From NCBI RefSeq assembly GCF_000284115.1, contig NC_017080.1, forward strand, positions 3,771,226 to 3,803,225: a stretch of 32,000 nt of DNA. Reading direction: 5' to 3'. Each line of letters opens with the position of its first letter. Position 1 is the first letter of the stretch. The DNA comes from Phycisphaera mikurensis NBRC 102666 (lineage in GTDB: Bacteria > Planctomycetota > Phycisphaerae > Phycisphaerales > Phycisphaeraceae). This document shows positions 2,854 to 29,145 of this stretch, piece after piece. The notes beneath the pieces are model-generated. The model had not been told where the DNA came from, ran no database searches, and worked only from the letters and a program-made list of their open reading frames with translations. The position numbers and the translations under genes were made by a program.

Positions 2854-2899
2854 CCGCGGACCGCGGGTCAGCGGGGCCCGCTGGCCTCGCGGTCCGCGG
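2854..2899. repeat. Paired palindrome element: CCGCGGACCGCGG (2854-2866) and tCGCGGTCCGCGG (2887-2899), centres exactly 33 bp apart
   Basis: Read directly from the sequence. The element begins 7 nt after the mutarotase stop, spans the LOG stop codon, and the second copy lies in the last codons of LOG (..VVPADREASGPR*). A small inner hairpin is present: cagcgg-ggc-ccgctg. Confidence 0.85.
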
Positions 2900-3437
2900 G
2901 AACGACCGCGTCCAGCGCAGCGAGGGCCTCCTCCGCCGTCGCCACGAAGCGGTACGCCTCGCGGTACGCCGGGCCCGCGAAGCGGGCGGCCTCGAAGTGG
3001 TCGAACAGCGTCCGCAGGGGCGACCAGAAGCCCGCGACGTCGACGATGACCACCGGCTTGTTGTGGTAGTTGAGGAAGCGGTGCGTCACCACCTCGGCCA
3101 CCTCCTCCAGCGTGCCGAAGCCTCCGGGCAGCACGACGAAAGCGTCCGCGCGGTCGTCCATCACCTGCTTCCGCTCCCGCATCGTCTCCACCACGACGAG
3201 CTCGTCGGAGGCCTCGAACGCCAGCTCTCGACGCATCATCGCCCGGGGGATGACGCCGGTGACCGCCCCGCCGGCGGCCTGGGTCGCCCGGGCAACCCGG
3301 CCCATCAGACCGACGGAGCCGCCCCCGTACACCAGGCGCCAGCCCCGCCGCCCGACCTCCCGCCCCGTCGCCTCCGCCGCGGCCGCGAACGCCGGGTCGT
3401 CGCCGTCGCCCGAACCACAGAACACGGCGATCTTCAT
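2868..3437 (-). CDS. LOG-family cytokinin riboside 5'-monophosphate phosphoribohydrolase-like (TIGR00730 type)
   Basis: MKIAVFCGSG...WRLVYGGGSVGLMG...AFVVLPGGFGTLEEVAEVV...HNKPVVIVDV. The PGGxGTxxE motif and overall layout are typical of LOG. The ATG at 3437 is preferred over the TTG at 3446 used by the track. Confidence 0.85.
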   Translation of the reverse strand: MKIAVFCGSGDGDDPAFAAAAEATGREVGRRGWRLVYGGGSVGLMGRVARATQAAGGAVTGVIPRAMMRRELAFEASDELVVVETMRERKQVMDDRADAFVVLPGGFGTLEEVAEVVTHRFLNYHNKPVVIVDVAGFWSPLRTLFDHFEAARFAGPAYREAYRFVATAEEALAALDAVVPADREASGPR

Positions 3438-3531
3438 GCCGGGCAACGTAGAGGTTGCGCGGCGCCCGGGTCTCCGCGAGCCACCCGCACCACGGCCAGC
3501 GGCCGGCTCGGTCGTGGCCGTGGTCCCGGTC

Positions 3532-3669
3532 CACCCGCGTCTTCTCGCCGGTGTCGAGGTCGCAGCGGGCGGCGACGAGCTCGATCTTCCCGCCCTTGGC
3601 GGCGGGACCGACGCACGGCCGGCTCTTGCTCAGGCTCTCGACGGTCTGGCGGGCGTTCTCGGCGTAGGA
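3532..3669 (-). pseudogene. Possible C-terminal remnant of a beta-class carbonic anhydrase (no N-terminal part, no start codon)
   Basis: The reverse-strand frame directly after the stop of the 3694..5763 gene reads SYAENARQTVESLSKSRPCVGPAAKGGKIELVAARCDLDTGEKTRV. This resembles the C-terminal N(A/V)RxQVxxL...GK(L/I)xxVGAxYDLDTGxV pattern of many beta-CAs. No catalytic N-terminal half is present. Confidence 0.35.
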
Positions 3670-3693
3670 GGCAGACCCGGTGCGGGAGCGGCC

Positions 3694-5763: not shown

Positions 5764-5848
5764 GGCGGCGGCGCGGGGGCGATGGGCGAGCGAGAGGGGC
5801 GGCACGAAGCTAACGCGGCGGGCCCAATTCGTCATCGATAAACCGTGC

Positions 5849-5898
5849 CGGTCGACCGACCGCCCGCCGGCCCGGCGGGTCGTGTAGATTGTCGACAA
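5849..5898. promoter_or_regulatory. Two perfect 10-bp palindromes with a GTCGAC core (CGGTCGACCG 5849-5858; TTGTCGACAA 5889-5898) in the divergent GHL6/GH16 intergenic region
   Basis: Read directly. The centres are 40 bp apart, in a locally lower-GC stretch between divergent starts at 5763 (-) and 5968 (+). They are candidate operator sites; the binding factor is unknown. Confidence 0.3.
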
Positions 5899-5967
5899 GT
5901 CTCCTCCGGCGGCCGGGCACGTGCCCGCACCTCCCGCCGGCTGTCTCCTCCTCCTTTTCGGAGCCCC

Positions 5968-6888: not shown

Positions 6889-6899
6889 AGCGGCGACCG

Positions 6900-6918
6900 A
6901 CCGGCCCCGCAGGCCGGT
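6900..6918 (+). terminator. Hairpin after GH16 stop (accggcc-ccgca-ggccggt), no U-tract
   Basis: 7-bp perfect stem with a 5-nt loop, 12 nt downstream of the stop at 6888 and between convergent genes. Confidence 0.3.
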
Positions 6919-6972
6919 GCCCTCGTCGGGCGGATCGTGGCAGCCCGCGGCGCGGTGGTCCGGCGCGACGCG

Positions 6973-8000: not shown

Positions 8001-8870
8001 ATGACCACCTCCACCCCCCAAGCCCCGCCCGCCCCCGCCGTGCCCGCCGCGATCCGGCAGGAGCTGCAGACTCCGATGGAGCCCACGCCCGAGCAGGTCC
8101 GACGCTTCCGGACCGACGGCTACCTCAAGTGGAAAGACTTCTTCTCGCCGGAGCTGCTCGCCTTCTTCGACCCGATCGTGACGGCCTGCCTGCACGACCG
8201 CAACCCGCTCAAGGACGTGCCGATGGAGCAGCGGTCGGCCTACGACCGGGCGTTCATCCAGGTGCCGAACCTGTGGACCTTCAACGACACGGTGCGGGAG
8301 CTCTCCACGAGCGTTCGCGCCGCCTCCGCCGCGTCGCGGCTGCTGGGCACGACCGGCGTCCGCATGTACCACGACCAGGCCCTCTACAAGGAGGCCGGCG
8401 GCGGCTTTACGCCTTGGCACGTCGACCAGCACTACTGGCCGATCGGCACGGAGAAGACGGTGACGATCTGGTTCCCCTTCACCGAGGTGCCGGTGGAGAA
8501 AGGCCCGCTGATGTTCGGCAAGGAGAGCCACCACAAGCACATCGCCCGCGAGGTCGCCATCTCCGAGGACAGCGAGAAGATCATCGGCGAGGCGATCAAG
8601 AGCCACCGGGTGGTCGAGGAGATGAGCGGCTACGGCCTGGGCGAGGTGAGCTTCCACTACGGCTGGACGCTGCACCGGGCGGCGCCCAACACCACCGACG
8701 ACAGCCGGAGGGTGCTGACGGTCATCTACGTGGCGGAGGACGCGGAGGTGATCGAGCCGAAGTACGACGCCCACCGCTCCGACCTGCGGGAGTGGATGCC
8801 CGGCCTCAAGCCCGGGGACGCGGTGGACAGCCCCTTGAACCCGGTGCTGTTCCGCGAGGCTTCGGCCTGA
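8001..8870 (+). CDS. Phytanoyl-CoA dioxygenase (PhyH) family Fe(II)/2-oxoglutarate-dependent oxygenase
   Basis: Starts at the ATG at 8001 within the 7920..8870 ORF. Motifs: FRTDGYLKWKDFF, GGGFTPWHVDQHYWP (HxD iron ligands), TIWFPF, GEVSFHYGWTLHRAAPN. Divergently arranged with the AraC gene. Confidence 0.8.
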   Translation: MTTSTPQAPPAPAVPAAIRQELQTPMEPTPEQVRRFRTDGYLKWKDFFSPELLAFFDPIVTACLHDRNPLKDVPMEQRSAYDRAFIQVPNLWTFNDTVRELSTSVRAASAASRLLGTTGVRMYHDQALYKEAGGGFTPWHVDQHYWPIGTEKTVTIWFPFTEVPVEKGPLMFGKESHHKHIAREVAISEDSEKIIGEAIKSHRVVEEMSGYGLGEVSFHYGWTLHRAAPNTTDDSRRVLTVIYVAEDAEVIEPKYDAHRSDLREWMPGLKPGDAVDSPLNPVLFREASA

Positions 8871-8905: not shown

Positions 8906-8951
8906 CCGCGGACCGCGGCTTAGATCCGCGGCGAACCCACGCGGTCCGCGG
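8906..8951. repeat. Paired palindrome element: CCGCGGACCGCGG (8906-8918; extended perfect 17-nt palindrome aGCCGCGGACCGCGGCt 8904-8920) and aCGCGGTCCGCGG (8939-8951), centres 33 bp apart
   Basis: Read directly. It sits between the convergent PhyH stop (8870) and the DedA-like stop (8920-8922). The second copy lies in the last codons of the DedA-like gene (..EEAADRVGSPRI*). Confidence 0.85.
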
Positions 8952-9495
8952 CTTCTTCGGGCACCAGCCGCTGGAGCGCCCCGCGGGTCGCCCAGCCCAG
9001 GCCCAGGACGCTCAGCGCCGTCGCCGCCACGCCCGCGGCCACGAGCCAGGGCGCCTCCGGCGACGCCCACGCCAGCCGCTCGAGCCCCGCGCCGAGCACG
9101 ACCACCGCCGCCACCCGCGGTGCCAGGCCAACGAGGGTGCCAAGCAGCAGCGGCCCACGCCTGACGCCGAACACGGCGGCCAGCGTGTTGGTGACCGCGA
9201 AGGGGACCACCGGGGACAGCCGCAGCAGGCCCACCAGGAGGGCCGCCCGGCCCGCCGGCGCCGCCGCGATCGCCGCGCAGACGGCCGCGCCCCGCCGGTG
9301 ACGCTCGACCCAGGCCAGCGGGGCCGGCCCCGCGAGCTTCCGGCCCGCCGCGTGCCCGACCAGCGCCGCAACGGTGGTCCCGCCGACCGCGACCGCGGCG
9401 CCCGCGGGCACGCCCAGCGACCAGCCGCACACCAGCGAGAGCAGGTGCGTCGGGACCAGCGCGAGCCCGCAGGCGGCCGCGCCCAGCAGCAGCAA
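8920..9495 (-). CDS. DedA / TVP38-TMEM64 (SNARE-associated) family membrane protein; true N-terminus uncertain
   Basis: Polytopic, with VPTHLLSLVCGWSLG...GHAAGRKL...LLRLSPVVPFAVTNTLAAVFG typical of the family. The track start is a TTG. The in-frame upstream sequence (to about 9650) still looks like a TM helix but has no ATG/GTG/TTG (see findings). Confidence 0.65.
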   Translation of the reverse strand: MLLLGAAACGLALVPTHLLSLVCGWSLGVPAGAAVAVGGTTVAALVGHAAGRKLAGPAPLAWVERHRRGAAVCAAIAAAPAGRAALLVGLLRLSPVVPFAVTNTLAAVFGVRRGPLLLGTLVGLAPRVAAVVVLGAGLERLAWASPEAPWLVAAGVAATALSVLGLGWATRGALQRLVPEEAADRVGSPRI

Positions 9496-9865
9496 CGCCG
9501 CGGCGAGGCCCGCGCCGCCCGCCCGCAGCGCCTCGGCGTGCGGCAGCAGCGCGAGGAAGGCCAGCGCCCCGCCGGCCGCGGGGCCCGCCGCCGCCCAGGC
9601 GACGAGCAGCGCCGGACGCGCCAGCGTCCGGGCGGCGGGGGGCCGGCTTCGCCGCGCTCCGGTGCTCAGGATGCCCCCACGCCCCGGAGCGCTGCCACCC
9701 GCCCGCGGAGCAAGCCGGCGCCGACCTCCCGGGACCGCCGGTCCGCGGGCCCGGAGCGTGTGGCGGCTCCGGGGGCGCTAGCGAAAGCGGAGGCGGGGAG
9801 GCGCACCCGGCGAGCTTATTGCGGCTCCTCCGCCGCCGGACCCCACCGCCCGCGTCGCGCAGCAC

Positions 9866-11001: not shown

Positions 11002-12285
11002 TCACGGCGCCCGCACGAGCAGCGGGACGTTCGCCGTGCCGGCGCCGCCGGCGCCGTCCCGCACCGTGACGAACAGCCGGTACGGGCCCGGCCGCCGGGG
11101 CGCCCGCAGCGTCACCGAATCCGCGGACCGCGCGACGAGATCCATCGCGACCCCCGCGGTCCGCGGCTCCGCATCCCCGCCCATGGCGATCCCCGGCGAG
11201 GCCTCCCGCAGCTCCCATTCGACCGCGAGCCCGGCCCCTTCCGGATCGCTCGCGTCGACCGTCGCGATCACCTGCGCCCCCGGCGGCACCGCCGCGGGGC
11301 CGTCCAGGCGGAGGCCCCGCACCTCCGGCGCCCGGTCCGCCGGCGGCTCGCCCGTCCACAGCTCGCGCATCGTGTCGGCGGCCGCCAGCCGGGCGCCGTC
11401 GGCGAGGAACATCCCGAACCACGTGGCCGTCGCCTCCTGCTTGTCGCCCCAGAGAAAAACGTACGAGCCGAGGCACGCGTCGGGATGCTCGGCGACCGTC
11501 GCCAGGTACCCGCGCCGCGTCCACGCCGCCTTCTGCGTCGAGGTCTGCTCCACCGGCGTGCCCCAGGGTGTGCGTGGGCACTCCCACTGGCCGCGGGGGC
11601 CGAACTCGGTCAGCACCCACGGCCTGCCCAGCGGCGGGTCCATCGCCGCGAGCGCGTCGCCCACCTCCGGTGCCTCGCCGTAGGCGTTGACGCCGAGGAT
11701 GTCGATGGACGGGCAGCGGTCGCGGACGTCGCGGGCCTTGTCGGCGTCCTCCCCGAGCCCGGCGATCACCGCCATCGTCGGGTGGTGGGGGTCCTCCCGC
11801 TGCAACGCTGCCGCGAGCGACTCGATCGCGTCGTAGATCGCGTCGTCCCCGCCGTGGCCCTCCACCTCGTTGCCCACGCCCCAGAGCAGCACCGCCGGGT
11901 GGCCCATCAGCGGCCGCGCCCGGGCCAGGATCTCCTCCTGCTGCCGCGCCACCGCTGCCGCGTCGCCGTAGTCGAAGCCCCGCCGCTCCGGCTGCATCCA
12001 GAGGCCCACCGCCACCGAGAGCCCGAGCCGATGGGCCTCGTCGAGCAGCGCCGGCGTGTCGTGGCCGATGCCCCAGATCCGCGCCGAGTTCCCGCCCGCG
12101 TCGGCGAGCGCAGCGAGCCGCCCGCTCACGCCCGCCCCCTTGATCTCGTAAGGCTGACCGCCGCGGAGCAGCCGCCACGCGTCGCCCTCCCGCACCACCT
12201 CCGCCGGCGTGGGCCCCGCGGCGGCGGTGGCCGCGAGGCAGAGAGAAAACCAGGTAGGCAGCGCGAGCGACGGGACAGCGTTCAT
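11002..12285 (-). CDS. Secreted TIM-barrel glycoside hydrolase (clan GH-A, GH2/GH5-like) with C-terminal Ig-like domain
   Basis: Starts at the internal ATG at 12285 of the 11002..12717 ORF. Signal peptide MNAVPSLALPTWFSLCLAATAAA. LLWGVGNEVEG is the acid/base NE motif and WVLTEFG is the nucleophile-type motif. The C-terminal beta domain reads ...YRLFVTVRDGAGG. Confidence 0.7.
   Translation of the reverse strand: MNAVPSLALPTWFSLCLAATAAAGPTPAEVVREGDAWRLLRGGQPYEIKGAGVSGRLAALADAGGNSARIWGIGHDTPALLDEAHRLGLSVAVGLWMQPERRGFDYGDAAAVARQQEEILARARPLMGHPAVLLWGVGNEVEGHGGDDAIYDAIESLAAALQREDPHHPTMAVIAGLGEDADKARDVRDRCPSIDILGVNAYGEAPEVGDALAAMDPPLGRPWVLTEFGPRGQWECPRTPWGTPVEQTSTQKAAWTRRGYLATVAEHPDACLGSYVFLWGDKQEATATWFGMFLADGARLAAADTMRELWTGEPPADRAPEVRGLRLDGPAAVPPGAQVIATVDASDPEGAGLAVEWELREASPGIAMGGDAEPRTAGVAMDLVARSADSVTLRAPRRPGPYRLFVTVRDGAGGAGTANVPLLVRAP
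11121..11166. repeat. Paired palindrome element inside the GH gene: CCGCGGACCGCGc (11121-11133) and CCGCGGTCCGCGG (11154-11166), centres 33 bp apart
   Basis: Read directly. In the gene frame these are read as ..EPRTAG.. and ..ARSAD.., a different frame from the ADR reading at other loci. Confidence 0.85.
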
Positions 12286-14922: not shown

Positions 14923-14951
14923 GGTCGGTGTATCAAGAGCCGTGTAAATCC
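14923..14951. repeat. IS256-family element, left terminal inverted repeat
   Basis: 29/29 match to the reverse complement of 16334-16362. Confidence 0.9.
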
Positions 14952-14963
14952 GCTCCTGCTTGA

Positions 14964-16247
14964 TCAGCGGGCCACCTCCTCGGAAGCGGGCAGGTAGCGG
15001 CGGGTGGAGGCCTGCCAATCGTCGTCGATCTCGACCAGCAAGGCCGAGCACAGCCGAAGCAACGACTCGGCGTTGGGGAACACGCGGATCTTGCGGGTCC
15101 GACGCTTGAGCTCCTGCTGGATCGGCCGCTCGATGCCGTTGGAGGTCCGAAGCTTCTTCCGCTGCGCCGGCGGGAAGGCGAAGACGGTGAGGCCTTCGGG
15201 CACGTTCTTGCCAAGCCACTTCGCCAGCCGCGGGCTCTTTGGCTCGTGCTCGTCGATCAGGTCGGCAAGCCGGCGGTCGGCCTCGGCCCGAGCGGGCGCG
15301 TTCCAGACTTGGCCGAGCTGCTTGCCGATCTTCTCGCATGTGGCGGCCGTGGGTGCGTGGTGGATCGCGTTGTTGGCCAGATGGAACTGGCACCGCTGCC
15401 ACGGCACCGCTGGCAGCACGGCCTTCCGGGCTTCGGCCAGCCCGGCGTGGTCGTCGCTGTTGACAAGCTCCACGCCCCGCATGCCGCGGGCGACCAGCGA
15501 GTCGAGGAAGTCCCGCCAGTGGACCTCGGCCTCGGAGAGGGCCACCGAGATGCCCAGCACTGAGCGGGAGCCGTTGGGGAGGATGCCCACGGCGGTGAGC
15601 ACGGCCACGTCGCGGACGACCCCGCCCTCGCGGACCTTCTCGTATCGGGCGTCAAGGATCAACCGCTCGACGGTGCCAAGCGGCCGCCCCCGCCAGGCAC
15701 GCAGCTCCTCGTCCAGCTCCGCGGTGGCGCGGCTGACCTGGGCGGAGGTGATGTTCTCGAGGCCCAGCTCGGTCATGACGGCCTTGACGTCGCGGGTGGA
15801 GACGCCCTGGACGTACATGGCGGCGAGCGTGGCGTTGACGGCCCGGCAGGCGCGGCTGCCACGCTCCAACGCCTGCGGGAAGAAGGGCTCGAAGCTTTCG
15901 CCGCGGCCGGGAACCGGTCGGGTCTTGGGCACGGCCACGGTGACTCTGCCGGCGGGCGTGTCCAGCTGCTTGGGTGAGAAGCCGTTGGCGTAGCCGGTGC
16001 GATCGGCCGACCGCTCGTGCTCGGCGGCACCGAGGTGCTGCTCGCGTTCGAGCCGCATGGCGATGTTGAGTGTGGCGGCGAAGGCCTGGGCCATGGCGTC
16101 GGTGCCGTGCTGGGTCAGCAGGTCCATGAGGCCGGTGAGGGCGGGGTTGTGGCGGTCGAGACCGTGGGTATCTTGCAAGTGGGTCACCAGGGGTTGGAGG
16201 CAGAGGTCGAAGACCTGCACTTCAGGGCCTGGTGGCCCGTTGATCAA
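14964..16247 (-). CDS. IS256-family (mutator-type) transposase
   Basis: 427-aa ORF with MRLEREQHLGAAEHERSADRTGYANGF..., LILDARYEKVR, VNSDDHAGL, WQRCQFHLANN and RTSNGIERPIQQELKRRTRKIRVFPN, all typical of the family. The exact start is uncertain (TTG 16247, GTG about 16220 or ATG about 16127). Confidence 0.9.
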   Translation of the reverse strand: MINGPPGPEVQVFDLCLQPLVTHLQDTHGLDRHNPALTGLMDLLTQHGTDAMAQAFAATLNIAMRLEREQHLGAAEHERSADRTGYANGFSPKQLDTPAGRVTVAVPKTRPVPGRGESFEPFFPQALERGSRACRAVNATLAAMYVQGVSTRDVKAVMTELGLENITSAQVSRATAELDEELRAWRGRPLGTVERLILDARYEKVREGGVVRDVAVLTAVGILPNGSRSVLGISVALSEAEVHWRDFLDSLVARGMRGVELVNSDDHAGLAEARKAVLPAVPWQRCQFHLANNAIHHAPTAATCEKIGKQLGQVWNAPARAEADRRLADLIDEHEPKSPRLAKWLGKNVPEGLTVFAFPPAQRKKLRTSNGIERPIQQELKRRTRKIRVFPNAESLLRLCSALLVEIDDDWQASTRRYLPASEEVAR

Positions 16248-16333
16248 GCTGGGGGAGCGGAGGCGTCGGCGCGGGCTGCTGAGCCCTGCGCCCGCTGCGC
16301 GGGCTCCGGGCTCAGCAGCCCGAAGTCGCTCCG

Positions 16334-16362
16334 GGATTTACACGGCTCTTGATACACCGACC
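16334..16362. repeat. IS256-family element, right terminal inverted repeat
   Basis: Exact reverse complement of 14923-14951. Confidence 0.9.
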
Positions 16363-16500
16363 ACCCCCCAGGGAGCGTGGCACCCGGTCAGGGGGGGACG
16401 CGGTGGGTGCCACGCCGCTTGCGGGGTGGCGGGCGTGAAAGGTCGTCGGGTCCCCGCCACCCCCCAAGGGGCGTGGCACCCGTGGCACCCATGGGCACCC
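16361..16500. repeat. REP/REPIN cluster downstream of the RAYT gene: one half REPIN cut by the IS (16361-16385), one full 77-nt REPIN hairpin (16405-16481), then degenerate GGCACCC repeats
   Basis: It shares the arms GGGTGCCACGCCGCTTGCGGGGTGGC / GCCACCCCCCAAGGGGCGTGGCACCC and a related 19-nt linker with the array at 17095-17554. Confidence 0.75.
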
Positions 16501-16514
16501 GACCCGGCGGGGAG

Positions 16515-17048
16515 TCAGCGGAGGTGTGGAAGGCGCAGGGCCCGGATGGGCGTCCCCAGCGATGACCACCGCCAATCCTCCGCTCGGGCCACCAGACCCC
16601 GCCGCACCGGGTTCTGATGGACGTAGTTCACCTTCTCACGAAGATCGTCGTCTCCCCGGATCCACCGGTCGTACCCGCCGCCGGTGAGCCAGAAACGCCG
16701 GGTGTTGTCTTTGCGAATGAGCGGCCGGAGGGCGGCGGGCCGCTCGACCTCCCACAGCGCGAAGGTGTCACGCGCAAAACGGCTCTTGAGGCCGCCGAGG
16801 GCGCGGGCGAGAGGAAGGCGGCCACCCATGACGAGCAGGTGGAGGTGCTCGGGCATGAGCACCCACGCGACCAGGCGGAGGTCGCCGGCGAGCACGACGC
16901 CAAGGAGGTTCTCGGCGGACGCGTCGCGCGTCGCGGCCCGGTGGAAGAGCGGGAGACGGTGCTCGCACGAGCAGGTCATAAATCGGGTGGCGCGAGGGTC
17001 ACCGCGTTGACGCTTCGCCTTGCGGGGTCGGTCGGCGTCGTCGGTCAC
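16515..17048 (-). CDS. REP-associated tyrosine transposase (RAYT, IS200/Y1 HUH-type)
   Basis: C-terminal part of the 16515..17552 ORF. HUH motif in VLMPEHLHLLV, catalytic Tyr motif in VNYVHQNPVRRGLV, then WRWSS. The N-terminal ATRFMTCSCEHRLPLF matches the usual YFVTxxTxxRxxLF strand. The GTG at 17048 is chosen as the start because the upstream part of the ORF is just the translated REPIN array. Confidence 0.8.
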   Translation of the reverse strand: MTDDADRPRKAKRQRGDPRATRFMTCSCEHRLPLFHRAATRDASAENLLGVVLAGDLRLVAWVLMPEHLHLLVMGGRLPLARALGGLKSRFARDTFALWEVERPAALRPLIRKDNTRRFWLTGGGYDRWIRGDDDLREKVNYVHQNPVRRGLVARAEDWRWSSLGTPIRALRLPHLR

Positions 17049-17094
17049 CGCCGCAGCGTCGCAGATCCGGACCGAAGATGTTCCGGCGCGGACT

Positions 17095-17554
17095 GGGTGC
17101 CACGCCGCTTGCGGGGTGGCGGGCGCGGGAGGCTGTCGCGGCTCGGCCACCCCCCAAAGGGCGTGGCACCCGATCGGTGGAGGACGCGGTGGGTGCCACG
17201 CCGCTTGCGGGGTGGCGAGCGCGGGAGGCTGTCGCGGCTCGGCCACCCCCCAAGGGGCGTGGCACCCGATCGGTGGAGGACGCGGTGGGTGCCACGCCGC
17301 TTGCGGGGTGGCGGGCGCGGGAGGTTGTCGCGACTCGGCCACCCCCCAAAGGGCGTGGCACCCGATCGGTGGAGGACGCGGTGGGTGCCACGCCGCTTGC
17401 GGGGTGGCGGGCGCGGGAGGCTGTCGCGGCTCGGCCACCCCCAAGGGGCGTGGCACCCGATCGGTGGAGGACGCGGTGGGTGCCACGCCGCTTGCGGGGT
17501 GGCGGGCGCGGGAGGTTGTCGCGACTCGGCCACCCCCCAAAGGGCGTGGCACCC
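17095..17554. repeat. Tandem array of 5 REPIN units (about 96-bp period: 77-nt imperfect hairpin plus 19-nt linker) immediately upstream of the RAYT gene
   Basis: Copies start at 17095, 17191, 17287, 17383 and 17478. Each unit is GGGTGCCACGCCGCTTGCGGGGTGGC..(apical part)..GCCACCCCCCAAAGGGCGTGGCACCC followed by GATCGGTGGAGGACGCGGT. The outer 12 bp pair perfectly (GGGTGCCACGCC / GGCGTGGCACCC). Confidence 0.9.
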
Positions 17555-17556
17555 GG

Positions 17557-17748
17557 TCAATGGGGGACGCGGAGCTTGCCGGTGACCGCCGCGGAGATCA
17601 GCGCGGAGCGGCGTTCGAGGAGGAGGGCGATGGAGCGATCGGCTTCGGCAAGGAGGGTGTCGAGGTCGGCGAGGCGATCTTCAAGGGCGACCAGAATCTC
17701 GGCGATTTCCTCTTCAGGAGGAACCGCGATCCTGATTGATTCGACCGG
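17557..17748 (-). pseudogene. C-terminal remnant of a type I restriction-modification specificity subunit (HsdS)
   Basis: The reverse-strand frame reads ..PVESIRIAVPPEEEIAEILVALEDRLADLDTLLAEADRSIALLLERRSALISAAVTGKLRVPH*. This matches the conserved HsdS C-terminal coiled-coil pattern (..PP..EQ..I...L......L......I..L...R.AL...L.TGK.RV). No target-recognition domain, hsdM or hsdR lies nearby. Confidence 0.5.
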
Positions 17749-17890
17749 AAGCTCAAGAAGCTCAAGAAGCTCAAGGGGTACGTCCCCTCGAGAATCTCCC
17801 CTCGAGAATCTCGAGAATCCCTCGAGAATCCGTCCCCTCGAGAATCAGGGGTACGTCCCCTCGAAAATCTGAAAGTCCCTCGAAGATCCT
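17748..17890. repeat. Low-GC degenerate tandem repeat: GAAGCTCAA x3, then about 7 copies of (CCC)CTCGAGAATC-type units; GGGGTACGTCCCCTCGA occurs twice
   Basis: Read directly. There are several XhoI-type CTCGAG cores with variable unit lengths (9-22 nt). GC is clearly below the surroundings. Confidence 0.85.
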
Positions 17891-17998
17891 GCGCTGCTGC
17901 ATGACCGCGTGGCTGCCGCGCCGACGGACTTCCTCGAAGCCTTGGGCTTTGAGCGGGTCGCAGCAGTCCTTCCCCGAGAAGGTCCGCAACCTAGGCAA
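17771..17998 (-). pseudogene. hicA: HicA-like mRNA interferase toxin ORF whose 3' third is built from the CTCGAGAAT repeat (probably disrupted)
   Basis: From the TTG at 17998 it reads MPRLRTFSGKDCCDPLKAQGFEEVRRRGSHAVMQQR.., giving the HicA GF..V...GSH core. The sequence then runs into the repeat as RIFEGLSDFRGDVPLILEGTDSRGILEILEGRFSRGRTP. The same DNA 9-mer is read in three different frames there (ILE / DSR / FSR). Confidence 0.45.
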
Positions 17999-18212
17999 CG
18001 CAGACCTCCAGCGAGGTGACGGATACGTCGCCCCGCAGGCGGTCGTCGATCTCGATGGGATCTGCGGCCTCCAGAAAGAGTTCCACCGCTTCTTGCAGGT
18101 TCGCCCGCGCCTCGGGGATCGTGTCGCCTTGGCTCGCGACGTCGACTTCGGGGCAGACGCCGACGTAGCCGTCGCCGTCGGCGGTGATGATCGCGGTGAA
18201 GTGACGGCTCGT
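17991..18212 (-). pseudogene. hicB: HicB-like (UPF0150) antitoxin lacking an in-frame canonical start codon
   Basis: The frame reads (T)SRHFTAIITADGDGYVGVCPEVDVASQGDTIPEARANLQEAVELFLEAADPIEIDDRLRGDVSVTSLEVCVA*, a classic HicB N-domain. The frame opens after a TGA and has only ACG at 18212. The nearby ATG (18220) is in another frame. Confidence 0.55.
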
Positions 18213-18280
18213 TGGAGCATCGTACGTTCAGGCCGCGGACCGTCGCTCATTTCACAATAATCCGCCGACGATCCGCGGAT

Positions 18281-18375
18281 CTGTCCACCCGCGCGTGCGC
18301 GCGACAAAGCGGGTACCGGCACGTGCTGCAAGGCGAGCGGCCCGCTGTCCACCCGCGCGTGCGCGCGACAGAGCG
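18281..18375. repeat. Two 32-bp direct repeats (18281-18312 and 18344-18375, 31/32 identical) separated by 31 bp
   Basis: CTGTCCACCCGCGCGTGCGCGCGACA(A/G)AGCGG; each contains a small GC hairpin. They lie between the groEL terminator and the hicB-like remnant. Confidence 0.85.
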
Positions 18376-18454
18376 GTGCAGCCGAAGCCGCACTGCCGAG
18401 CCGGTGAGACGAGCCCCCGGGTTTCCCGGGAATCCCGTCGAGGATGGACAGCCG

Positions 18455-18484
18455 CCACAAACGAAGCGGCGGGTCTCCCGCCGC
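18455..18484 (-). terminator. Intrinsic terminator of groEL
   Basis: On the transcribed strand: gcggcggg-aga-cccgccgc (8-bp stem) followed by ttcgtttgtgg. It lies about 46 nt after the groEL stop (18530-18532). Confidence 0.6.
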
Positions 18485-18529
18485 GGAGGCGTATCCCGTT
18501 CAGGACGCGACCCCCCGGCGAAGCCGGAA

Positions 18530-21352: not shown

Positions 21353-23386
21353 TTGGCAGCCGGCAGCCCGCCCGACGGGGGCTCCACGAATCCCGCCGAA
21401 CCTCCCCGCTTCGCCGAGACACGCTTGCCGCCAGTCCCCGACATCCTCCTCCTGCTTCTCGCCTGGGCGGTGGGCTGCGCGGCCGTGGGTGGGTGGGGCC
21501 TGGCGGCGGCCCGGGCGATGTCGCTGGTGGGGGTGACGCGGGAGGAGCCCAGAGCGGCCGCTCCCGCGGCGGCGGCAAGCCCGCCCCGGGCGGGGCTCGC
21601 GGGGCGCCCGCCGGCGCGGGTGGCGCGGCCCGGGGGCTTGGGCCTGGCGGCGTGGTGGCTGGGCCTGCCGCCGATGCTGCTCTTTCTGCAGGCCTGGCAC
21701 CTGGCGATGCCGGTGGGCTGGCTCGCGTGGCCGGCCGTGCTGGCGATCGCCGCGGCGGGGTACCACCTGGGGCGTGAGGCGGCGGCGAGGTGGCTCCGTT
21801 GGGGCCTCGCCCACCCGGCGGTCCTGGCGGCGACGGGGGTTGCGGCGGTGGCGCTGGCCTGGCGGGTGGCGACGCCGGCCGGGCCCGGGGCCCCGCGGGA
21901 GGTGGCGGCGGCGTGGGAGCCACTGGTGCAGCTGGGCCGCCAGTGGTCGCTGCCGCTGGGTGTGGGCAACCTGTCGGCGGTCTTCGGGCTGAACCACGCC
22001 TGGACGCTGCTCGCCGCGCTCTTCTCGGTGGGCCCTTGGGCGGGGCTTCCCGGCCGGGCCGCGTCGGGGCTGGTGGCGCTCCCGCTGGCCGCGGCGGCGT
22101 TCGCCGGGCTCGCCGCCGCGGCGGGGGCACGCCGCGGGTCCGGCGACGACCGGGCGACGCCGCTGGAAGCGGACGAGCGGGCCGGTGCCCTCGCCGCGGG
22201 CTTCTTCGACGCCGGAGCCGCCCTGCTGCTCGCGGCCTGGATCGCCGGGCCGGGCCTGTCCGCTCCGCTGCCGGGGGTTGGGGCGGGGGCGCTGCTCTTC
22301 GCCGCGACCGGGCAGGCCTTCCGGGGCGTCGCGCCGTCGCTGTGCCCGCACCGCGGCGAGCGGATCGACCGGCTGGCGGTGGCGGTCGTGCTGGCGGCGG
22401 GGGCGGCCGCGGCGCACCCGCCCGCCTGGGCGATCGCCTTCCCGCTGATGCTCTGGTCGGGGTGGGTGCTGCTGGTCACCGACCGGGCCGCGTTGCCGGC
22501 GCGGCGGTCGACCCGCTCCGTCGGCTTCGATCACCACCTCCTCCCCGGGGCGCTCCCGCGGAAGGGCACCGTGATCGCGCTCGCGGTGGGCGTGGGCGCC
22601 CTGGCGGCGGCTTGGGTGCTGCGCAGCCTCTGGACCACCGGGCGGCCGCTGTTCCCCTTCCAGGCCCTCTCTCTGCCGGTGGACTGGGCGGTGTCGCGGT
22701 CCGCGGTGCGCGAGCTGGGCCGCGTGCTCGGCGAGCCGGCGGTGCTGGAGTCGGTGCTTGCCCAAGCCGGGGGGGTGCTCCTGCCCGCAACGGCCGGGGT
22801 GCTCGCCTGGCTGCTGTGGATCGCTCGCGGGGGGGCCGAGGGCCGGCAGCGTCGGACCGCCCCGCTGCCGCTCGTGCTCGCGGCGGGGTTGTCGCTGTCG
22901 CTCTTCGAGCCGGGGCCGACGCCGGGATCCGCGGTCAACGCGGCCGCGGCCGCGGCCATCGCCGCGGGCGGCCTGGCGGCGCTGGCGATGGGCGGGCCGC
23001 GGGGCGGGCGGTCCGCGGGCACGCCGCACCCGTGGCTGCTGACCGGGGCCGTGCTCGTGGCCGCCGCGGGGGTCGCGGTGGCGGCGGCGCTGACGCCAGC
23101 GGCGCCGTCGGCGTCCGCCGCCGATCCGGCGGCTCCGACGCCGCCCCCGCCGCCGCCGATCGCCGCCGACGCCGGGATGCGGCCGTGGGTTTCCGCGTGG
23201 GGGGTGGAGGCGCAGGTGCCCGCCGCCGAGCCCGAGCGGGCCGCGGCGGCCGAAGGCCTGCCGGGCTTCACGCCGCTGCCGTCGGCGGCACGCGAACCCT
23301 CCGCATCGCTCCGCGCGAACGACCCCGCGGACCCCGAGGCGGGGTTCAGGCTGGACCGACGCGACCCGCGGCAGGTCCGATGGTGA
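21353..23386 (+). CDS. Large polytopic membrane protein, function unknown (start uncertain, 21191-21530)
   Basis: This is the only frame with a hydrophobic L/A/W/G-rich TM-like composition (..ILLLLLAWAVGCAAVGGWGLAAA.., LGLPPMLLFLQAWHLAMPVGWLAWPAVLAIAAAGY..); the overlapping frames are R/G/P junk. The TTG at 21353 is chosen as a plausible start. The last 10 codons and the stop come from the tandem repeat. Confidence 0.6.
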   Translation: MAAGSPPDGGSTNPAEPPRFAETRLPPVPDILLLLLAWAVGCAAVGGWGLAAARAMSLVGVTREEPRAAAPAAAASPPRAGLAGRPPARVARPGGLGLAAWWLGLPPMLLFLQAWHLAMPVGWLAWPAVLAIAAAGYHLGREAAARWLRWGLAHPAVLAATGVAAVALAWRVATPAGPGAPREVAAAWEPLVQLGRQWSLPLGVGNLSAVFGLNHAWTLLAALFSVGPWAGLPGRAASGLVALPLAAAAFAGLAAAAGARRGSGDDRATPLEADERAGALAAGFFDAGAALLLAAWIAGPGLSAPLPGVGAGALLFAATGQAFRGVAPSLCPHRGERIDRLAVAVVLAAGAAAAHPPAWAIAFPLMLWSGWVLLVTDRAALPARRSTRSVGFDHHLLPGALPRKGTVIALAVGVGALAAAWVLRSLWTTGRPLFPFQALSLPVDWAVSRSAVRELGRVLGEPAVLESVLAQAGGVLLPATAGVLAWLLWIARGGAEGRQRRTAPLPLVLAAGLSLSLFEPGPTPGSAVNAAAAAAIAAGGLAALAMGGPRGGRSAGTPHPWLLTGAVLVAAAGVAVAAALTPAAPSASAADPAAPTPPPPPPIAADAGMRPWVSAWGVEAQVPAAEPERAAAAEGLPGFTPLPSAAREPSASLRANDPADPEAGFRLDRRDPRQVRW

Positions 23387-23520
23387 GCCCGACGCGACCC
23401 GCGGCGGGTCCGATGGTGAGCCCGACGCGATCCGCGGCAGGTCCGATGGTGAGCCCGACGCGATCCGCGGCAGGTCCGATGGTGAGCCCGACGCGATCCG
23501 CGGCAGGTCCGATGGTGAGC
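23356..23520. repeat. Tandem repeat, 33-bp unit x5 (plus a partial sixth)
   Basis: CCGACGCGA(C/T)CCGCGGC(A/G)GGTCCGATGGTGAGC. Copies start at 23356, 23389, 23422, 23455 and 23488; copies 3-5 are identical. Confidence 0.95.
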
Positions 23521-23553
23521 CCGAGCCCCGTCCCGACGGCGTAGCTTCGCGGC

Positions 23554-24596: not shown

Positions 24597-24603
24597 GGGA
24601 TTT

Positions 24604-24630
24604 CCCTCAGTATGAGGGCGTAGATTCTTT
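24604..24630 (+). terminator. Candidate intrinsic terminator after the arfB-nudix pair
   Basis: ccctca-gta-tgaggg hairpin followed by the U-rich cgtagattcttt, 8 nt after the stop. Confidence 0.4.
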
Positions 24631-25897: not shown

Positions 25898-26074
25898 GAG
25901 CTCCGCCGGGCCCGGCGCCGGGGTGCCGCGAGAACCCGCGAGCGCCGCTCCGCCTTCGCGAGTCCCCGCCATTGGGGCGAGCCCCGCTCTCGACCCGAAA
26001 CAACCCTTCCCGCGGCGGAGGCGTATCGTGCACGCCGCGCCCGCCCCCGCCTCTCCTTCAGGACGACGACGACG

Positions 26075-26521
26075 ATGACCACCCCGCCCGAAGCCACGAA
26101 CCTCCCGCTGCCCCCGCGTCGTCGCCTCCTCGCGTCCGCCGTCCTGCCGGCGCTCGCCCTCGCGGCCGTCCTGCTGCCCTCCGCGGGCTGCTCGGCCGAC
26201 AAGCACACCTTCTACTCGACCACGACGGCCCCCAAGTCGGTGGACGTGCGCTACGTCGAGAGCGGCCAGACCGCTTGGTCGAAGGACATCCCCGAGGGCC
26301 ACGAGCTGACGCTGAACTTCAACCGGCCCGGCGAGGGCCTCTTCCGCTCGATGCCCAAGACGCCGGCGACGAAGATGAAGTGGAAGCTGAAGCAGGTCTC
26401 CGCCGGCAGCGACGACCGCGGGCGGCCGACCGACGACCGACAGAACGACTCGGGCACGGTCGACCTCGACGGCCTGCCGATCCAGATGGACGTCCGCGTC
26501 GACGTGGACGCCGCCGGGTGA
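26075..26521 (+). CDS. Lipoprotein, function unknown
   Basis: Signal peptide with a lipobox (LAAVLLPSAGC). 148 aa with good coding composition. Confidence 0.65.
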   Translation: MTTPPEATNLPLPPRRRLLASAVLPALALAAVLLPSAGCSADKHTFYSTTTAPKSVDVRYVESGQTAWSKDIPEGHELTLNFNRPGEGLFRSMPKTPATKMKWKLKQVSAGSDDRGRPTDDRQNDSGTVDLDGLPIQMDVRVDVDAAG

Positions 26522-27312
26522 GCGCCCCGCCGCCGCGGACCGTGGGGCAAGAACGCCGCCCGGACCCGCGGTCCGCGGCCTCCGGCCGCGCGGCGCTCGC
26601 CGCGGCCGCGGCCGTGGCGGCGGCCGCGGGCGTCGCCGTGCGTGTCGACGCCCAGTTCCTGCCCGACCCCGCGGCGGGCACGGAAGCCGGCAGCGCCACC
26701 CCCTACACCGAGCAGACGGTCGGCGACGTCGACCCGCTCGCGCGGTCGCTGCGTTTCATCGACCCCGCGCAGGCCGCCGACGTGATGCGCGACCGCGTTC
26801 TGCGGGCCCGGGCGGTCGACCCGCTCGCCCCCGGCGACGGAGGCGGCGTGTCCGGGCGCGGCTTCCTCTACCGCGCCCCGGGCGTGCGTGCCCGCTTCGC
26901 GCGGCCCGTGTACCGGACGTGGACCGCGTACGGCGAGACCCTCAACGGCACCCCCGCGCGGCAGGGCGATTTCGAGGAAGTCATCCCGCCGGACACCGTC
27001 TTCGACCTGACGCTGCCCCCCCGGCCGACCGCCGAGCTGACGCCCTTCAGCGCCGGCATGGTCGCCGAGCACCGGCTCCCGCTCGCGCAGCCGGCCCCGC
27101 CGATGGACCGCCGGATCGTCGCCCCGGCGCTGGGCGTGGGCGCGCGGCCGCCCGGGGAGCGGAGCCTTCCCCCGCGGAGCCCCGACCCGGAAGCGGCCGC
27201 CCAGCCGCGGCGGCTGCAGCCGTGGGTGCGTGTGGAGCGGGACGCGGAGGGGCGGCTGCGGGTGGTGGAAGCGGACGCGCCGGAGGCGCGGCCCCCCGCG
27301 TCGGAGCCCTGA
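26518..27312 (+). CDS. Secreted hypothetical protein, translationally coupled to the lipoprotein gene (GTGA overlap)
   Basis: The GTG at 26518 lies in the 25714..27312 frame. The N-terminal signal-like segment is AALAAAAAVAAAAGVAVRVDAQ. The rest has moderate complexity (..FLYRAPGVRARFARPVYRTWTAYGETLNG..). Confidence 0.5.
   Translation: MSAPPPRTVGQERRPDPRSAASGRAALAAAAAVAAAAGVAVRVDAQFLPDPAAGTEAGSATPYTEQTVGDVDPLARSLRFIDPAQAADVMRDRVLRARAVDPLAPGDGGGVSGRGFLYRAPGVRARFARPVYRTWTAYGETLNGTPARQGDFEEVIPPDTVFDLTLPPRPTAELTPFSAGMVAEHRLPLAQPAPPMDRRIVAPALGVGARPPGERSLPPRSPDPEAAAQPRRLQPWVRVERDAEGRLRVVEADAPEARPPASEP
26533..26578. repeat. Paired palindrome element: CCGCGGACCGtGG (26533-26545) and CCGCGGTCCGCGG (26566-26578), centres 33 bp apart
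   Basis: Read directly. It starts 12 nt after the lipoprotein stop, inside the first ~20 codons of the next CDS (read as PPRTVG...PRSAA). Confidence 0.8.
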
Positions 27313-27405
27313 GCGCGAGTCGCTCCCGGCCCGGACGCCGCGGCCGGTCGCGGCGAACCGAGCTCCGGGCGTCCGCGAACGTGGCTGCCGGCCTCCAACG
27401 CCCCG

Positions 27406-28152
27406 TCACCCGTCTCCCGTCGGGTGGAGCGCCTCCCGCAGCGCGCGATCGATGACCCCGAAGCCGAAGCCCCGCCGGGCCAGCTGCCCCTGCAGCCGCC
27501 GCCGCCGGGCCTGGGGGTCGAGGCGCTGCATCGACGGCGTCGAGGCCTTCTTAACGGCGAAGGCGATCGCCTCGGCGTCCACGTCCTCGCCGGCCTCCGC
27601 CCGCTGCTTCCGGTCGTCGCGGTGCTCGGCGAGCACGGCGTCGGCGACGCCGCGGGGCACCCGCTTCTCCATCAGCTTCTGCCGCAGCAGCCGCTCGCCG
27701 GCGGGCTTGGCCCGGAGCGTCTCGCGGACGAGGGCGCGGGCGAACGCGGCGTCGTCGAGCAGGCCCAGCCGGCCCACGCGGTCCAGGGCGGAGCCGACCG
27801 CCTCGGGCTCGTGGCCGGCGCGGCGGAGGCGGTCGGCGAGCATCCCGCGGCTCATCGCGCGGCTGCCGATGCGGTTGCAGGCCGAGCGAAAGGCTCTGTC
27901 GTGCCCGGCGGCGCGGGTGACGGCCTCCGCCAGCGCCGCCGTCCACGCCAGGTCCGGCTCGAGGCGAAGCTCCTGCGCCCGCTCCACCGGGAGCGTCGCC
28001 ACGACGCGGCCCTTGCTCGCCCGGCGTCCCTCCGCCGCCGGCCAGCCCACCCGCACCGTCACCCGCCCGGGGTCCCGCTGCGTCGGCCGCAGCTCGCGGA
28101 TGACGCGTCCCACGGCGAACGCCTCGCCTCCGGGATGGGGTTCTTCGGGCAC
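27406..28152 (-). CDS. recX: RecX-family regulatory protein
   Basis: 248 aa with repeated three-helix RecX-like segments (..LLDDAAFARALVRETLR.., ..LRQKLMEKRVPRGVADAVL.., ..RRRLQGQLARRGFGFGVIDRALRE). Confidence 0.75.
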   Translation of the reverse strand: MPEEPHPGGEAFAVGRVIRELRPTQRDPGRVTVRVGWPAAEGRRASKGRVVATLPVERAQELRLEPDLAWTAALAEAVTRAAGHDRAFRSACNRIGSRAMSRGMLADRLRRAGHEPEAVGSALDRVGRLGLLDDAAFARALVRETLRAKPAGERLLRQKLMEKRVPRGVADAVLAEHRDDRKQRAEAGEDVDAEAIAFAVKKASTPSMQRLDPQARRRRLQGQLARRGFGFGVIDRALREALHPTGDG

Positions 28153-28299
28153 GGGACGACCGTACCGCTCCCGGGCCGCGGTTTCCCGGGAGCCGGGCGG
28201 AGCGAGCGGATCGACCCACGCCGCGGGGCTCGGAGGATCCAGCGTCCGAGCCGGGGCACCCCCGCGGCTGCGCTTCTGGCGGAGCCCCCGGGCAGCGGT

Positions 28300-29145
28300 T
28301 CAGCCCGGCTGGCACGCCACGCAGTGCACGGTCGCCCGCTGCGCCAGCCGCGACGCCACGAGCGGCGAGCCGCAGGCCGTGCACGGCCGGCCGCCGCGGC
28401 CGTAGACGCGGTGCTCGCGCTGGGCGGTGCCGGCCTCGCCGTCGACCCCGGCGTGGTCGCGCAGGGTGGAGCCGCCCAGCGCGACCGCGCGGCGGAGGAC
28501 CGCCCGGATGCCGCGGACCAGCGCCTGGATCCGGTCCGCGGGCACGCGGTCCGCGGGCAGGTGCGGGGCGAGGCGGGCGGCGAAGCAGGCCTCGTCGGCG
28601 TAGATGTTGCCCAGGCCGGCGAGCACGGACTGGTCGAGCAGGGCCGCCTTGAGCGGGCGGCGGGTGCGGGCGAGGGCGGCCCGGAGCGGGGCCGTCCGGG
28701 CGTCGAGCGCGTCGGGTCCCAGGGCGGCGAAGCGGCGGGCTCGGAGGTCGGCCAGGCTGGGGTGGACGCCCAGGCCGCCGAAGCGGCGCGGGTCGACGAA
28801 GCGCAGCTCCGCGCCGCTCCCGAGCGTCCAGCGGGCGTGCGTGTGCGGCGGGACGGGTTCGGCCGCCGCGTCGGCCACGAACCGCAGCCCGCCGGACATC
28901 CCCAGGTGGACCCACACCGCCCCGCCGGCGGCGCCCTCGATCGCCAGCTGCTTCCCGTGCCGGTGCACCCCCGCGACGACGTCGCCGGCGAGCAGCTGCC
29001 CGGGGGCGGGCGTCGCGTAGACGCGGCGGGCCAGCGAGGCCCGCACCACCGGGTGCGGGCCGAGCGTGACGCCGGCCACCCGGCGGCCGGTGAGGCGGGC
29101 GGCGAGCCCGCGGCGGACCGTCTCGACCTCGGGCAGCTCCGGCAC
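28300..29145 (-). CDS. mutM: Formamidopyrimidine-DNA glycosylase (Fpg/MutM)
   Basis: The GTG at 29145 gives the canonical (M)PELPEVETVRRGL N-terminus. The H2TH region is LLDQSVLAGLGNIYADEACF. The C-terminal zinc finger is GRPCTACGSPL...RATVHCVACQ. Confidence 0.9.
   Translation of the reverse strand: MPELPEVETVRRGLAARLTGRRVAGVTLGPHPVVRASLARRVYATPAPGQLLAGDVVAGVHRHGKQLAIEGAAGGAVWVHLGMSGGLRFVADAAAEPVPPHTHARWTLGSGAELRFVDPRRFGGLGVHPSLADLRARRFAALGPDALDARTAPLRAALARTRRPLKAALLDQSVLAGLGNIYADEACFAARLAPHLPADRVPADRIQALVRGIRAVLRRAVALGGSTLRDHAGVDGEAGTAQREHRVYGRGGRPCTACGSPLVASRLAQRATVHCVACQPG
28511..28556. repeat. Paired palindrome element inside mutM: CCGCGGACCagcG (28511-28523) and aCGCGGTCCGCGG (28544-28556), centres 33 bp apart; an extra partial copy lies at 28531-28541
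   Basis: Read directly. In the mutM frame it is read as ..LPADRVPADRIQALVRG.., which lies in a variable linker of Fpg. Confidence 0.75.

Follow-up and report, generated by a model that had tools for sequence, protein, structure and literature searches.

A previously undescribed family of REP-like, dyad-symmetric repeats in Phycisphaera mikurensis and its close relatives

Introduction

Repetitive extragenic palindromic (REP) sequences have stems of 5 to 13 bp and loops of 2 to 20 nt; some units are intragenic, and some families have no transposase (PMC3733652). In REPs of the RAYT type, an unpaired GTAG (or CGTC) tag lies beside the hairpin (PMC3733652). Here we report a previously undescribed family of REP-like repeats from a 32,000-nt stretch of the genome of Phycisphaera mikurensis NBRC 102666 (contig NC_017080.1, positions 3,771,226 to 3,803,225) and from related genomes. 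(We refer to this whole stretch as the window.) Each unit of the family has two inverted arms, CCGCGGACCG and CGGTCCGCGG, at a fixed distance from each other.

Two other kinds of short repeat serve as comparisons below. DNA uptake sequences (DUS, in Neisseria) and uptake signal sequences (USS, in Haemophilus) are abundant as single copies, and the spacing of their pairs is variable. HIP1, a cyanobacterial palindrome, spreads through substitutions, with conservation at orthologous sites. As for the places where our units occur, we know of no good understanding of the ends of transcription units in high-G+C bacteria, and in Planctomycetota especially. The best reading of the unit is that it is a clade-specific, host-maintained, REP-like gene-end element with dyad symmetry.

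Results

A 46-bp unit with two invariant arms

A preliminary description of the window had reported pairs of a 13-mer palindrome, 33 bp apart from centre to centre, which might form a 13-bp stem. The pairs are genuine: the five that had been listed, a degenerate sixth, and a lone copy are all where they had been placed. But the invariant arm is only 10 bp long (11 bp at most), and positions 11 to 13 of the 13-mer vary across copies (CGG, TCG, or TGG). The invariant part of the unit is the outer pair of 10-mers, CCGCGGACCG-N26-CGGTCCGCGG (46 bp), often with GAAT and ATTC flanks. The GAAT flank occurs independently on each side (both sides have it in 7 units, versus 5.1 expected). Each arm holds a palindrome of its own, CGG-W-CCG, which is lengthened to CCGCGG-W-CCGCGG in P. 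mikurensis, and the arms include the SacII (CCGCGG) and RsrII (CGGWCCG) palindromes. The centres of the arms, A7 and T40, are 33 bp apart, or about three helical turns. GATCC, which had been noticed in some of the loops, is no feature of the family.

The copies in the window are:

2854 to 2899: unit 1, perfect arms (CCGCGGACCG...CGGTCCGCGG), between the convergent genes for mutarotase (2017-2847, plus strand) and LOG (2868-3437, minus strand)
8906 to 8951: unit 2, perfect arms, between the convergent genes for PhyH (8040-8870, plus strand) and DedA/VTT (8920-9495, minus strand)
9703 to 9748: degenerate unit, two mismatches, both in the left arm, in the spacer between the DedA gene and the next minus-strand gene
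11121 to 11166: unit 3, perfect arms and a GAAT flank, inside a gene for a GH2-like glycoside hydrolase (11002-12285, minus strand), read as EPRTAGVAMDLVARSAD
18233 to 18278: unit with one mismatch, in the right arm (CGATCCGCGG), 251 nt past the stop codon of groEL; absent from the preliminary description
22695 to 22706: lone arm, without a partner at N26
26533 to 26578: unit 4, perfect 10-mer arms, 11 nt past the stop codon of a gene for a 148-amino-acid protein (26075-26521, plus strand)
28511 to 28556: unit-like match with one mismatch, inside mutM (28300-29145, minus strand), read as PADRVPADRIQALVRG

The window is 74% G+C, and one explanation for the pairs is a coincidence of the codons that a genome of this composition prefers (such as those for PADR, PRTA, or RSA). 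We therefore compared the counts with a codon-aware null, in which synonymous codons were shuffled among genes and bases were shuffled within intergenic segments. Under this null, the window should have 0.003 units with no mismatches, 0.07 with at most one mismatch, and 0.33 with at most two. The observed numbers are 4, 6, and 7. (Dinucleotide shuffles gave 0.01 units with at most two mismatches.) Similarly, single 10-mers occur 17 times (2.1 under the codon-aware null), the 11-mer core has 9 exact matches (0.9 under the same null), and the 13-mer CCGCGGWCCGCGG has 4 exact matches (0.06 expected). So the over-representation of the pairs is stronger than it had first seemed.

The codon-aware null is about 30-fold above the dinucleotide null, and preferred codons can explain the lone arms and one weak unit (in mutM or at 9703). 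With 0.33 units expected at up to two mismatches, one weak unit could be chance, but the whole family cannot. The copy at 9703 is either decayed or chance, and it and the mutM copy are the ones that may be chance matches. The lone arm at 22695 is best treated as chance or codon-driven and as lying outside the family. For the family as a whole, a coincidence of codons is refuted by the counts, by the sharp peak at a gap of 26 nt, and by the conservation of units in relatives (see below); also, most units are intergenic. We give this explanation practically no weight.

The spacing of the arms is fixed

To examine the spacing of the arms, we combined sequence from P. mikurensis with that of three related assemblies (125 kb, non-redundant) and allowed at most one mismatch. 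These sequences have about one unit per 5 kb. In the order A-then-T, 25 arm pairs are separated by exactly 26 nt, and each of the other gaps from 0 up to 120 nt is represented once or not at all. In the reversed order (T-then-A), there is never more than one pair at any gap. This is the sharp 33-bp peak, from centre to centre, for which the preliminary description had suggested a test. Among exact arms, 45 are paired, all at N26, and 12 are lone. The number of lone arms roughly agrees with the codon-aware null, which gives about 2 per 32 kb. As lone arms are at the null level and pairs have a fixed gap, the unit of selection is the pair and not the arm.

These numbers also bear on the possibility that some process acts on a single motif, as with neisserial DUS or cyanobacterial HIP1. 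It could be uptake-signal-like, or it could be a methylation or very-short-patch-repair bias on CCGCGG or CGGWCCG. The arms do contain the SacII and RsrII palindromes, and some intragenic copies of the unit arose by substitution without indels, as happens with HIP1 and USS. Inverted pairs of DUS also occur at gene ends. But a drive on single motifs is largely refuted by the ratio of lone to paired arms, and it cannot account for a spacing and an A-then-T order that are both fixed, or for the phasing of the interior that we describe below. We consider it very improbable.

The family is restricted to one clade

In P. mikurensis, we found 11 units in about 71 kb, which suggests roughly 600 units per genome. 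For P. mikurensis and its nearest relatives together, we estimate one unit per 5-6 kb. The relatives' contigs were found through homologues of GroEL, LOG, and RAYT. One genome from a metagenome (ERZ25039505) has 5-6, 5, and 4 units at three loci (L126, L181, and L186), and another (ERZ25070591) has 5 units at one locus (L180). This is about one unit per 4-5 kb at the related loci. In more distant relatives, with LOG identities of 68% or 59%, stretches of 15-20 kb contain no unit and no single arm either. The absence of the unit from these genomes indicates a lineage-specific system.

A scan of metagenomes for arms at N26 identified 53 stretches in all, mostly from one marine assembly (ORXU01). 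A few of the ORXU01 contigs have coding similarity to the Phycisphaera clade, at 72-96% amino-acid identity. We also scanned a genome collection for pairs of the 11-mer with gaps of 8 to 38 nt. Chance matches in unrelated high-G+C genomes dominated the matches listed, and a gap of 36 nt traced to one orthologous locus in Kitasatospora. The matches listed showed that the motif is not universal.

Arms and length are conserved, and interiors are not

At five sites, two or three of the genomes share a unit. These sites are the 3' ends of the LOG, mutarotase, and DedA genes, the region downstream of groEL, and the junction between hyp148 and hyp264. At these shared sites, the arms are 95-100% identical. 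The interiors are 23-46% identical and the flanks are 20-55% identical, which are random values for their composition. For example, the DedA orthologue at L181 also has a unit at its 3' end (L181 9409; arms 100% and interior 35% identical). Downstream of groEL, a relative has a unit at L126 11957 (arms 95% and interior 31% identical), and the unit that is orthologous to unit 4 lies at the same junction (L126 4797; arms 100% and interior 42% identical).

Near-identical arms around randomised interiors, with randomised flanks, show purifying selection on the arms and on the length of the unit, with the interior nearly free. The LOG proteins of these genomes are only 76-79% identical, and yet the units lie at the same gene ends. 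This implies that the units are ancient and constrained. The proposal that conservation is at the level of DNA rather than protein is thus borne out by the orthologous units, and also by an intragenic copy that is written in rare codons (see below).

Units lie behind stop codons

We classified the placement of units by using the database gene calls at annotated loci. Seven units are convergent, 19 are tandem, 2 are divergent, and 4 are intragenic. Units start within 11 nt past a stop codon in 10 of the 26 intergenic cases, and the sequence TGA-AT-CCGCGG was met repeatedly at independent genes. Divergent promoter regions are poor in units (2 of 28). One divergent case, at L187 5580-5625 in P. 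mikurensis, is a perfect unit with a canonical interior, and 9 nt separate it from the annotated start of a downstream DUF5060 gene. The start codon of this gene may be mis-annotated.

Some units overlap the ends of genes. Unit 1 begins 6 nt past the TGA of the mutarotase gene, and the LOG stop codon is inside its interior. In both relatives, LOG ends with TGA-AT right before the unit. P. mikurensis LOG has lost that ancestral stop codon, so it is translated into the unit and ends at a TGA in the interior, which explains its C-terminal extension of about 10 residues. Similarly, the stop codon of DedA (TAA) is inside the interior of unit 2. The last 8-10 residues of LOG and of DedA are encoded by the unit (2868-2899 and 8920-8951). 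At the other end of genes, unit 4 precedes the next gene or overlaps that gene's annotated first codons. Where a gene follows a unit, as with the coding sequence annotated from 26518, its real start is probably downstream of the unit.

Intragenic copies are not insertions

The preliminary description had asked whether the block of about 46 bp is an insertion, which an alignment of orthologous genes would reveal. The alignments argue against this. First, the region of unit 3 is true coding sequence (G+C at third codon positions is 0.87-1.0 throughout), and homologues of the GH2-like gene align across unit 3 without a gap. Second, MutM aligns without a gap to solved MutM structures across the unit-like match, and the mutM orthologue at L126 already has 14 of the 20 arm bases at the same codons. 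So the mutM match either arose in place or is the single chance match that the codon-aware null allows (0.07, at up to one mismatch).

A paralogue of the GH2-like gene in P. mikurensis (61% identical) has a perfect unit at the homologous codons (L187 1886-1931). The interior of this unit reads GTT TCG GGC GTT TTC ACG TCA, and then GAT. We take these codons to be rare ones for a 73% G+C genome. They recreate the A/T tracts of the family and its ATTC flank. The use of presumably rare codons that fit the element suggests that selection acts at the level of nucleic acid inside this gene, and it speaks against a simple insertion.

The interior has phased A/T tracts and little covariation

Across units, A/T content peaks at positions -2 to 0, 7, 11, 17-20, 27-30, 36, 40, and 47-49, against a background of about 25%. 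This profile is strand-independent and dyad-symmetric, and its peaks recur about every 10 bp along roughly 50 bp. The interiors also share a weak consensus (YSG-NSG-TTTY...; 8.4 bits, versus 4.2 in controls). When units were oriented by expectation-maximisation, the interiors had a polarity in their T-runs, which is real but weak. In a curated set, the sense strand of the two loop tracts has 72 T and 34 A, which is a weak trend.

Segments of 62 nt around the units have folding energies of -30 to -50 kcal/mol, and their z-scores reach -7.6. One mirror pair in the interior, 11/36, is complementary in 47 units of the pooled set versus 31.4 expected, and none of 5,000 permutations reached this value. 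However, the excess is gone within genomes (5 versus 4.7 expected in P. mikurensis and 6 versus 5.9 in ERZ25039505), and only the mixed ORXU set retains it. Its cause may thus be a species-level preference for half-sites, with C/G in P. mikurensis and T/A in the relatives.

We rejected an extended symmetric stem in the interior, as there is no covariation except for the 11/36 signal, which is itself lost within single genomes. We also rejected an asymmetry of G-U wobble pairs as a signature of RNA (the sense-oriented count was 6 to 6). The unit at L126 18553 has a single mismatch and no compensatory change.

RNA stem-loop or duplex DNA

Our tentative preference is that the unit acts as an RNA stem-loop at the ends of transcription units, where it would mark or protect the 3' ends of mRNAs. 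The unit is symmetric and could be transcribed from either side. The G+C-rich arms would pair right behind the stop codon to form a very stable stem-loop, which might block 3'-to-5' decay, assist termination, or both. Two convergent genes could use the same unit. In keeping with this reading are the position of units just past stop codons, the sharing of units by convergent genes, the stable folds, the weak U bias, and the scarcity of canonical terminators. (Hairpins followed by a T-tract are not enriched in this genome, with 4 found versus 4.1 expected.) The invariant arms, the strict 26-nt spacing, and the phased A/T tracts are more than a bare hairpin would need, and from these we infer a dedicated, sequence-specific protein that measures the unit.

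Several observations weigh against an RNA stem-loop. First, in a bare RNA hairpin, the loop would not have to be fixed at 26 nt, and the stem would not have to be invariant in sequence. Second, the inner two A/T tracts are often both T-runs, which cannot pair, and the symmetric tracts at intervals of about 10 bp look more like bent duplex DNA. Third, the 11/36 excess, which is the only covariation, is lost within genomes and may not reflect pairing, and the other mirror positions of the interior and flanks have no covariation. Fourth, an automated test did not link the polarity of interiors to gene direction, and when units rather than bases are counted, the T bias of the sense strand is weak (13 versus 6). 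Fifth, a U tract after the stem is rare, with five or more T in the next 8 nt on only 0.6% of sides. Finally, perfect units inside genes are awkward for a terminator.

Alternatively, the unit may be a site in duplex DNA. A putative symmetric dimer, or dimer of dimers, would bind the arms and bend or wrap the 26-bp spacer by way of its phased A/T tracts. The resulting complex could be a boundary at gene ends, as a roadblock to read-through or in the management of supercoils, like BIME-1/RIP of E. coli with integration host factor (IHF) and gyrase. (BIMEs are bacterial interspersed mosaic elements.) The strict spacing and constant arm order, the ~10-bp dyad-symmetric A/T peaks, the independence of the GAAT flanks, and the lack of base-pair covariation would all suit such a site, as would the loss of the 11/36 concordance within genomes. 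Every arm is palindromic by itself, and intragenic copies are kept without indels.

On the other hand, a duplex-DNA site does not demand placement 1-11 nt past stop codons or the depletion of units between divergent genes. (Tolerance, together with the A/T content of stop codons, could still yield both.) The weak T bias of the sense strand also speaks against such a site. Our analysis yielded no candidate protein, and the linkers of 78 units contain no match to the IHF consensus WATCAANNNNTTR. We also looked for a unit-flanked gene as a clue to a dedicated enzyme and found nothing in L143, L148, or L163. A duplex-DNA site is a possible reading that we rank only slightly below the RNA stem-loop.

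We also consider a lineage-specific mark of gene ends that would combine elements of both. Here a predicted protein with two-fold symmetry would read the 10-bp arms 26 bp apart, and the unit would be a bidirectional, factor-dependent terminator or an insulator. The form that the protein reads could be bent duplex DNA or a hairpin, either extruded or transcribed, and selection would be strong enough to have put the site into coding sequence by means of rare codons. We put this forward as a doubtful proposal.

Relation to RAYT genes and insertion sequences

Another possibility is that the unit is selfish: a non-autonomous element, such as a tiny miniature inverted-repeat transposable element (MITE) or a REP, that is or was mobilised in trans, spread as copies, and has no host function. 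Its terminal inverted repeats would then be kept for a transposase. The ends of the unit are indeed inverted repeats, its length does not vary, and it is present in many copies. Also, 68 pairs of non-orthologous interiors share at least 16 of their 26 bases, versus 18 pairs in column-shuffled controls, and two of the units at L186 adjoin REPINs (paired REPs).

Nevertheless, several lines of evidence make a selfish element unlikely. First, the interiors are essentially randomised while the arms are perfect, and units remain at the same gene ends in genomes whose proteins are 76-79% identical, which implies an ancient and constrained element. Second, intragenic copies are not insertions relative to their homologues. 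Third, the units have no target-site duplication: we found no consistent flanking direct repeat, and the interiors of orthologous units are random, neither of which suggests a MITE. Fourth, the RAYT genes of the window and of L186 are flanked by REPINs of another sequence (GGGTGCCACGCC) and not by our units, and a protein search identified no second RAYT gene in P. mikurensis. So the family is independent of the RAYT gene. Fifth, the copy of IS256 in the window has ends (GGTCGGTGTATCAAGAGCCGTGTAAATCC) that are unrelated to the arms, and we found no copy of the unit in viral contigs.

The RAYT gene of the window (16515-16979, minus strand) is flanked by REPINs with the core GGGTGCCACGCC (16350-17572). 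These include an array of five copies with a period of 96 bp (17094-17572). The 12-nt core also flanks the 60%-identical RAYT gene of a relative (gene at L186 10001-10540; region L186 9797-10590), and the inner stem differs there. In two stretches of L186 (6696-6830 and 9717-9965), a unit of our family is about 35-55 nt from a REPIN, and one of these units abuts a minus-strand start codon. The surrounding region of L186 includes a DDE transposase, the RAYT gene, DUF499 and DUF3780 genes, and an N-terminal fragment that is DUF1156-like by eye. We suspect that this is a disrupted defence island.

The cluster of RAYT gene and REPINs in the window adjoins an insertion sequence of the IS256 family (Mutator-type), at about 14923-16362. 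Its transposase is encoded at 14964-16220 (minus strand), and the ends noted above are its terminal inverted repeats. At least one further copy of IS256 (P0005) is on another P. mikurensis contig (L125).

A tandem repeat and other genes of the window

Exact matches of its proteins also locate the window on contig JACHEL010000005.1 of the assembly GCA_014207395.1. Genes in the window were called from G+C content by codon position and were named with Pfam. Besides the genes next to units, the window contains:

16350 to 17570: RAYT gene and REPIN arrays
next to this cluster: IS256 transposase
groEL and groES
ending at 23386: DUF8201 gene
recX
a CNNM gene

The window also has a 33-bp tandem repeat (23356-23524), and a link had been suggested between its period and the 33-bp spacing of the arms. 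In the repeat, the 3'-terminal 11 codons of the DUF8201 gene, together with the stop codon (RRDPRQVRW*), are present five times. The orthologue at L126 ends in FRDPRQVAW* and has no array. The CCGCGG of the repeat encodes DPRQ, which is present in this array-less orthologue as well. So the tandem repeat is, from its sequence, a recent duplication of the 3' terminus of the gene (its copies are 97% identical) and has no relation to the palindrome family. That the number 33 turns up in both is best seen as a coincidence. We also considered whether the array is an amplified arm and loop, which its translation (RRDPRQVRW* five times) rules out.

Within the same DUF8201 gene, in a G+C-rich and repetitive coding region, ARAGORN predicted a 91-nt tRNA-Gly(GCC) at 23064-23154. 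Given its excessive length and its position inside a gene, this call is probably a false positive. The region at 17580-18500 is rather A+T-rich. It has small open reading frames on the minus strand and short, perfect tandem repeats of GAAGCTCAA (three copies, 17748-17775) and TCCCCTCGAGAATC (two copies, 17783-17812). After groEL, the corresponding region of the relative has VapB/PIN toxin-antitoxin genes. Finally, dnaA (L123 12801-14363) is about 0.8-2.4 kb past the right end of the window. This places the window beside a probable replication origin.

Discussion

A single symmetric element behind stop codons, at an estimated several hundred loci, is a candidate for a sequence-specific signal of 3' ends or of boundaries. 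Its bipartite, length-measured design gives a handle for finding the protein that would read it. If the proposal of a mark of gene ends, which we consider doubtful, is right, then this high-G+C bacterium, in which canonical intrinsic terminators are not enriched, would have a factor-dependent terminator or an insulator at its gene ends. Even if the unit is "only" a REP-like repeat, the family marks the Phycisphaera clade in metagenomes. The units also account for C-terminal extensions (in LOG and DedA) and for doubtful annotations of start codons in these genomes.

How does the unit compare with known systems? A search of Rfam gave no match at the gathering score in the window, and around three L181 units there were only chance-level matches. 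In the literature that we searched, the arm sequence occurred only as primers.

Intrinsic terminators resemble the unit in that they are stable, G+C-rich stem-loops just past the stop codon, and in symmetric form they can serve convergent genes. Unlike them, the unit has no U tract, its loop is 24-26 nt rather than 3-8 nt, and it has the same stem sequence everywhere. The inverted pairs of DUS and USS in the terminators of Neisseria and Haemophilus are also similar. They are conserved pairs of 10-12-mers behind genes, their loops are unconserved, and some arose inside genes by substitution. But single arms of our unit are at chance level, and its spacing is invariant.

The palindromic elements of Rickettsia (RPEs) and HIP1 share with the unit that they are palindromic repeats which also lie inside coding genes and are translated. 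RPEs are insertions of 100-150 bp that add residues to the protein, and intragenic units add none. HIP1 is a single 8-bp palindrome and, unlike the arms of the unit, has no partner at a fixed distance.

The REPINs of the RAYT gene are, like the units, dispersed palindromic repeats, and they are in the same genome. Both have a short core that is common to P. mikurensis and the relative ERZ25039505. But the REPINs flank the RAYT gene, show conservation from end to end, and are arranged in tandem arrays. The CCGCGGACCG units are single, their interiors are not conserved, and they do not flank RAYT genes. The suggestion that the units are a REP-like family distinct from the RAYT REPINs therefore holds as a classification: they are dispersed, occur in one clade, and are separate from the GGGTGCCACGCC repeats.

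The most similar systems are the REPs and BIMEs of Enterobacteria and Pseudomonas. These are short, G+C-rich inverted repeats with hundreds of copies, near stop codons and between convergent or co-directional genes. Both RNA roles (3'-end protection and termination) and DNA roles (with IHF and gyrase) have been proposed for them, and they too have occasional intragenic copies. BIME-1 (RIP/RIB) has two inverted REPs around an IHF linker, and what it shares with our unit is only the inverted arms and a bendable linker with phased A/T. The units lack a GTAG or CGTC tag (their flanks are AAT or GAAT) and have no associated RAYT gene. They do fall within the broad class of untagged REP-like repeats, but with a loop of 24-26 nt, which is longer than the 2-20 nt reported for REPs (PMC3733652). 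What sets them apart from REP/BIME is that only the two 10-bp arms are invariant, with a spacer that is free in sequence and fixed in length at 26 nt, and that these arms have stayed identical in genomes between which protein identity is down to 76-79%.

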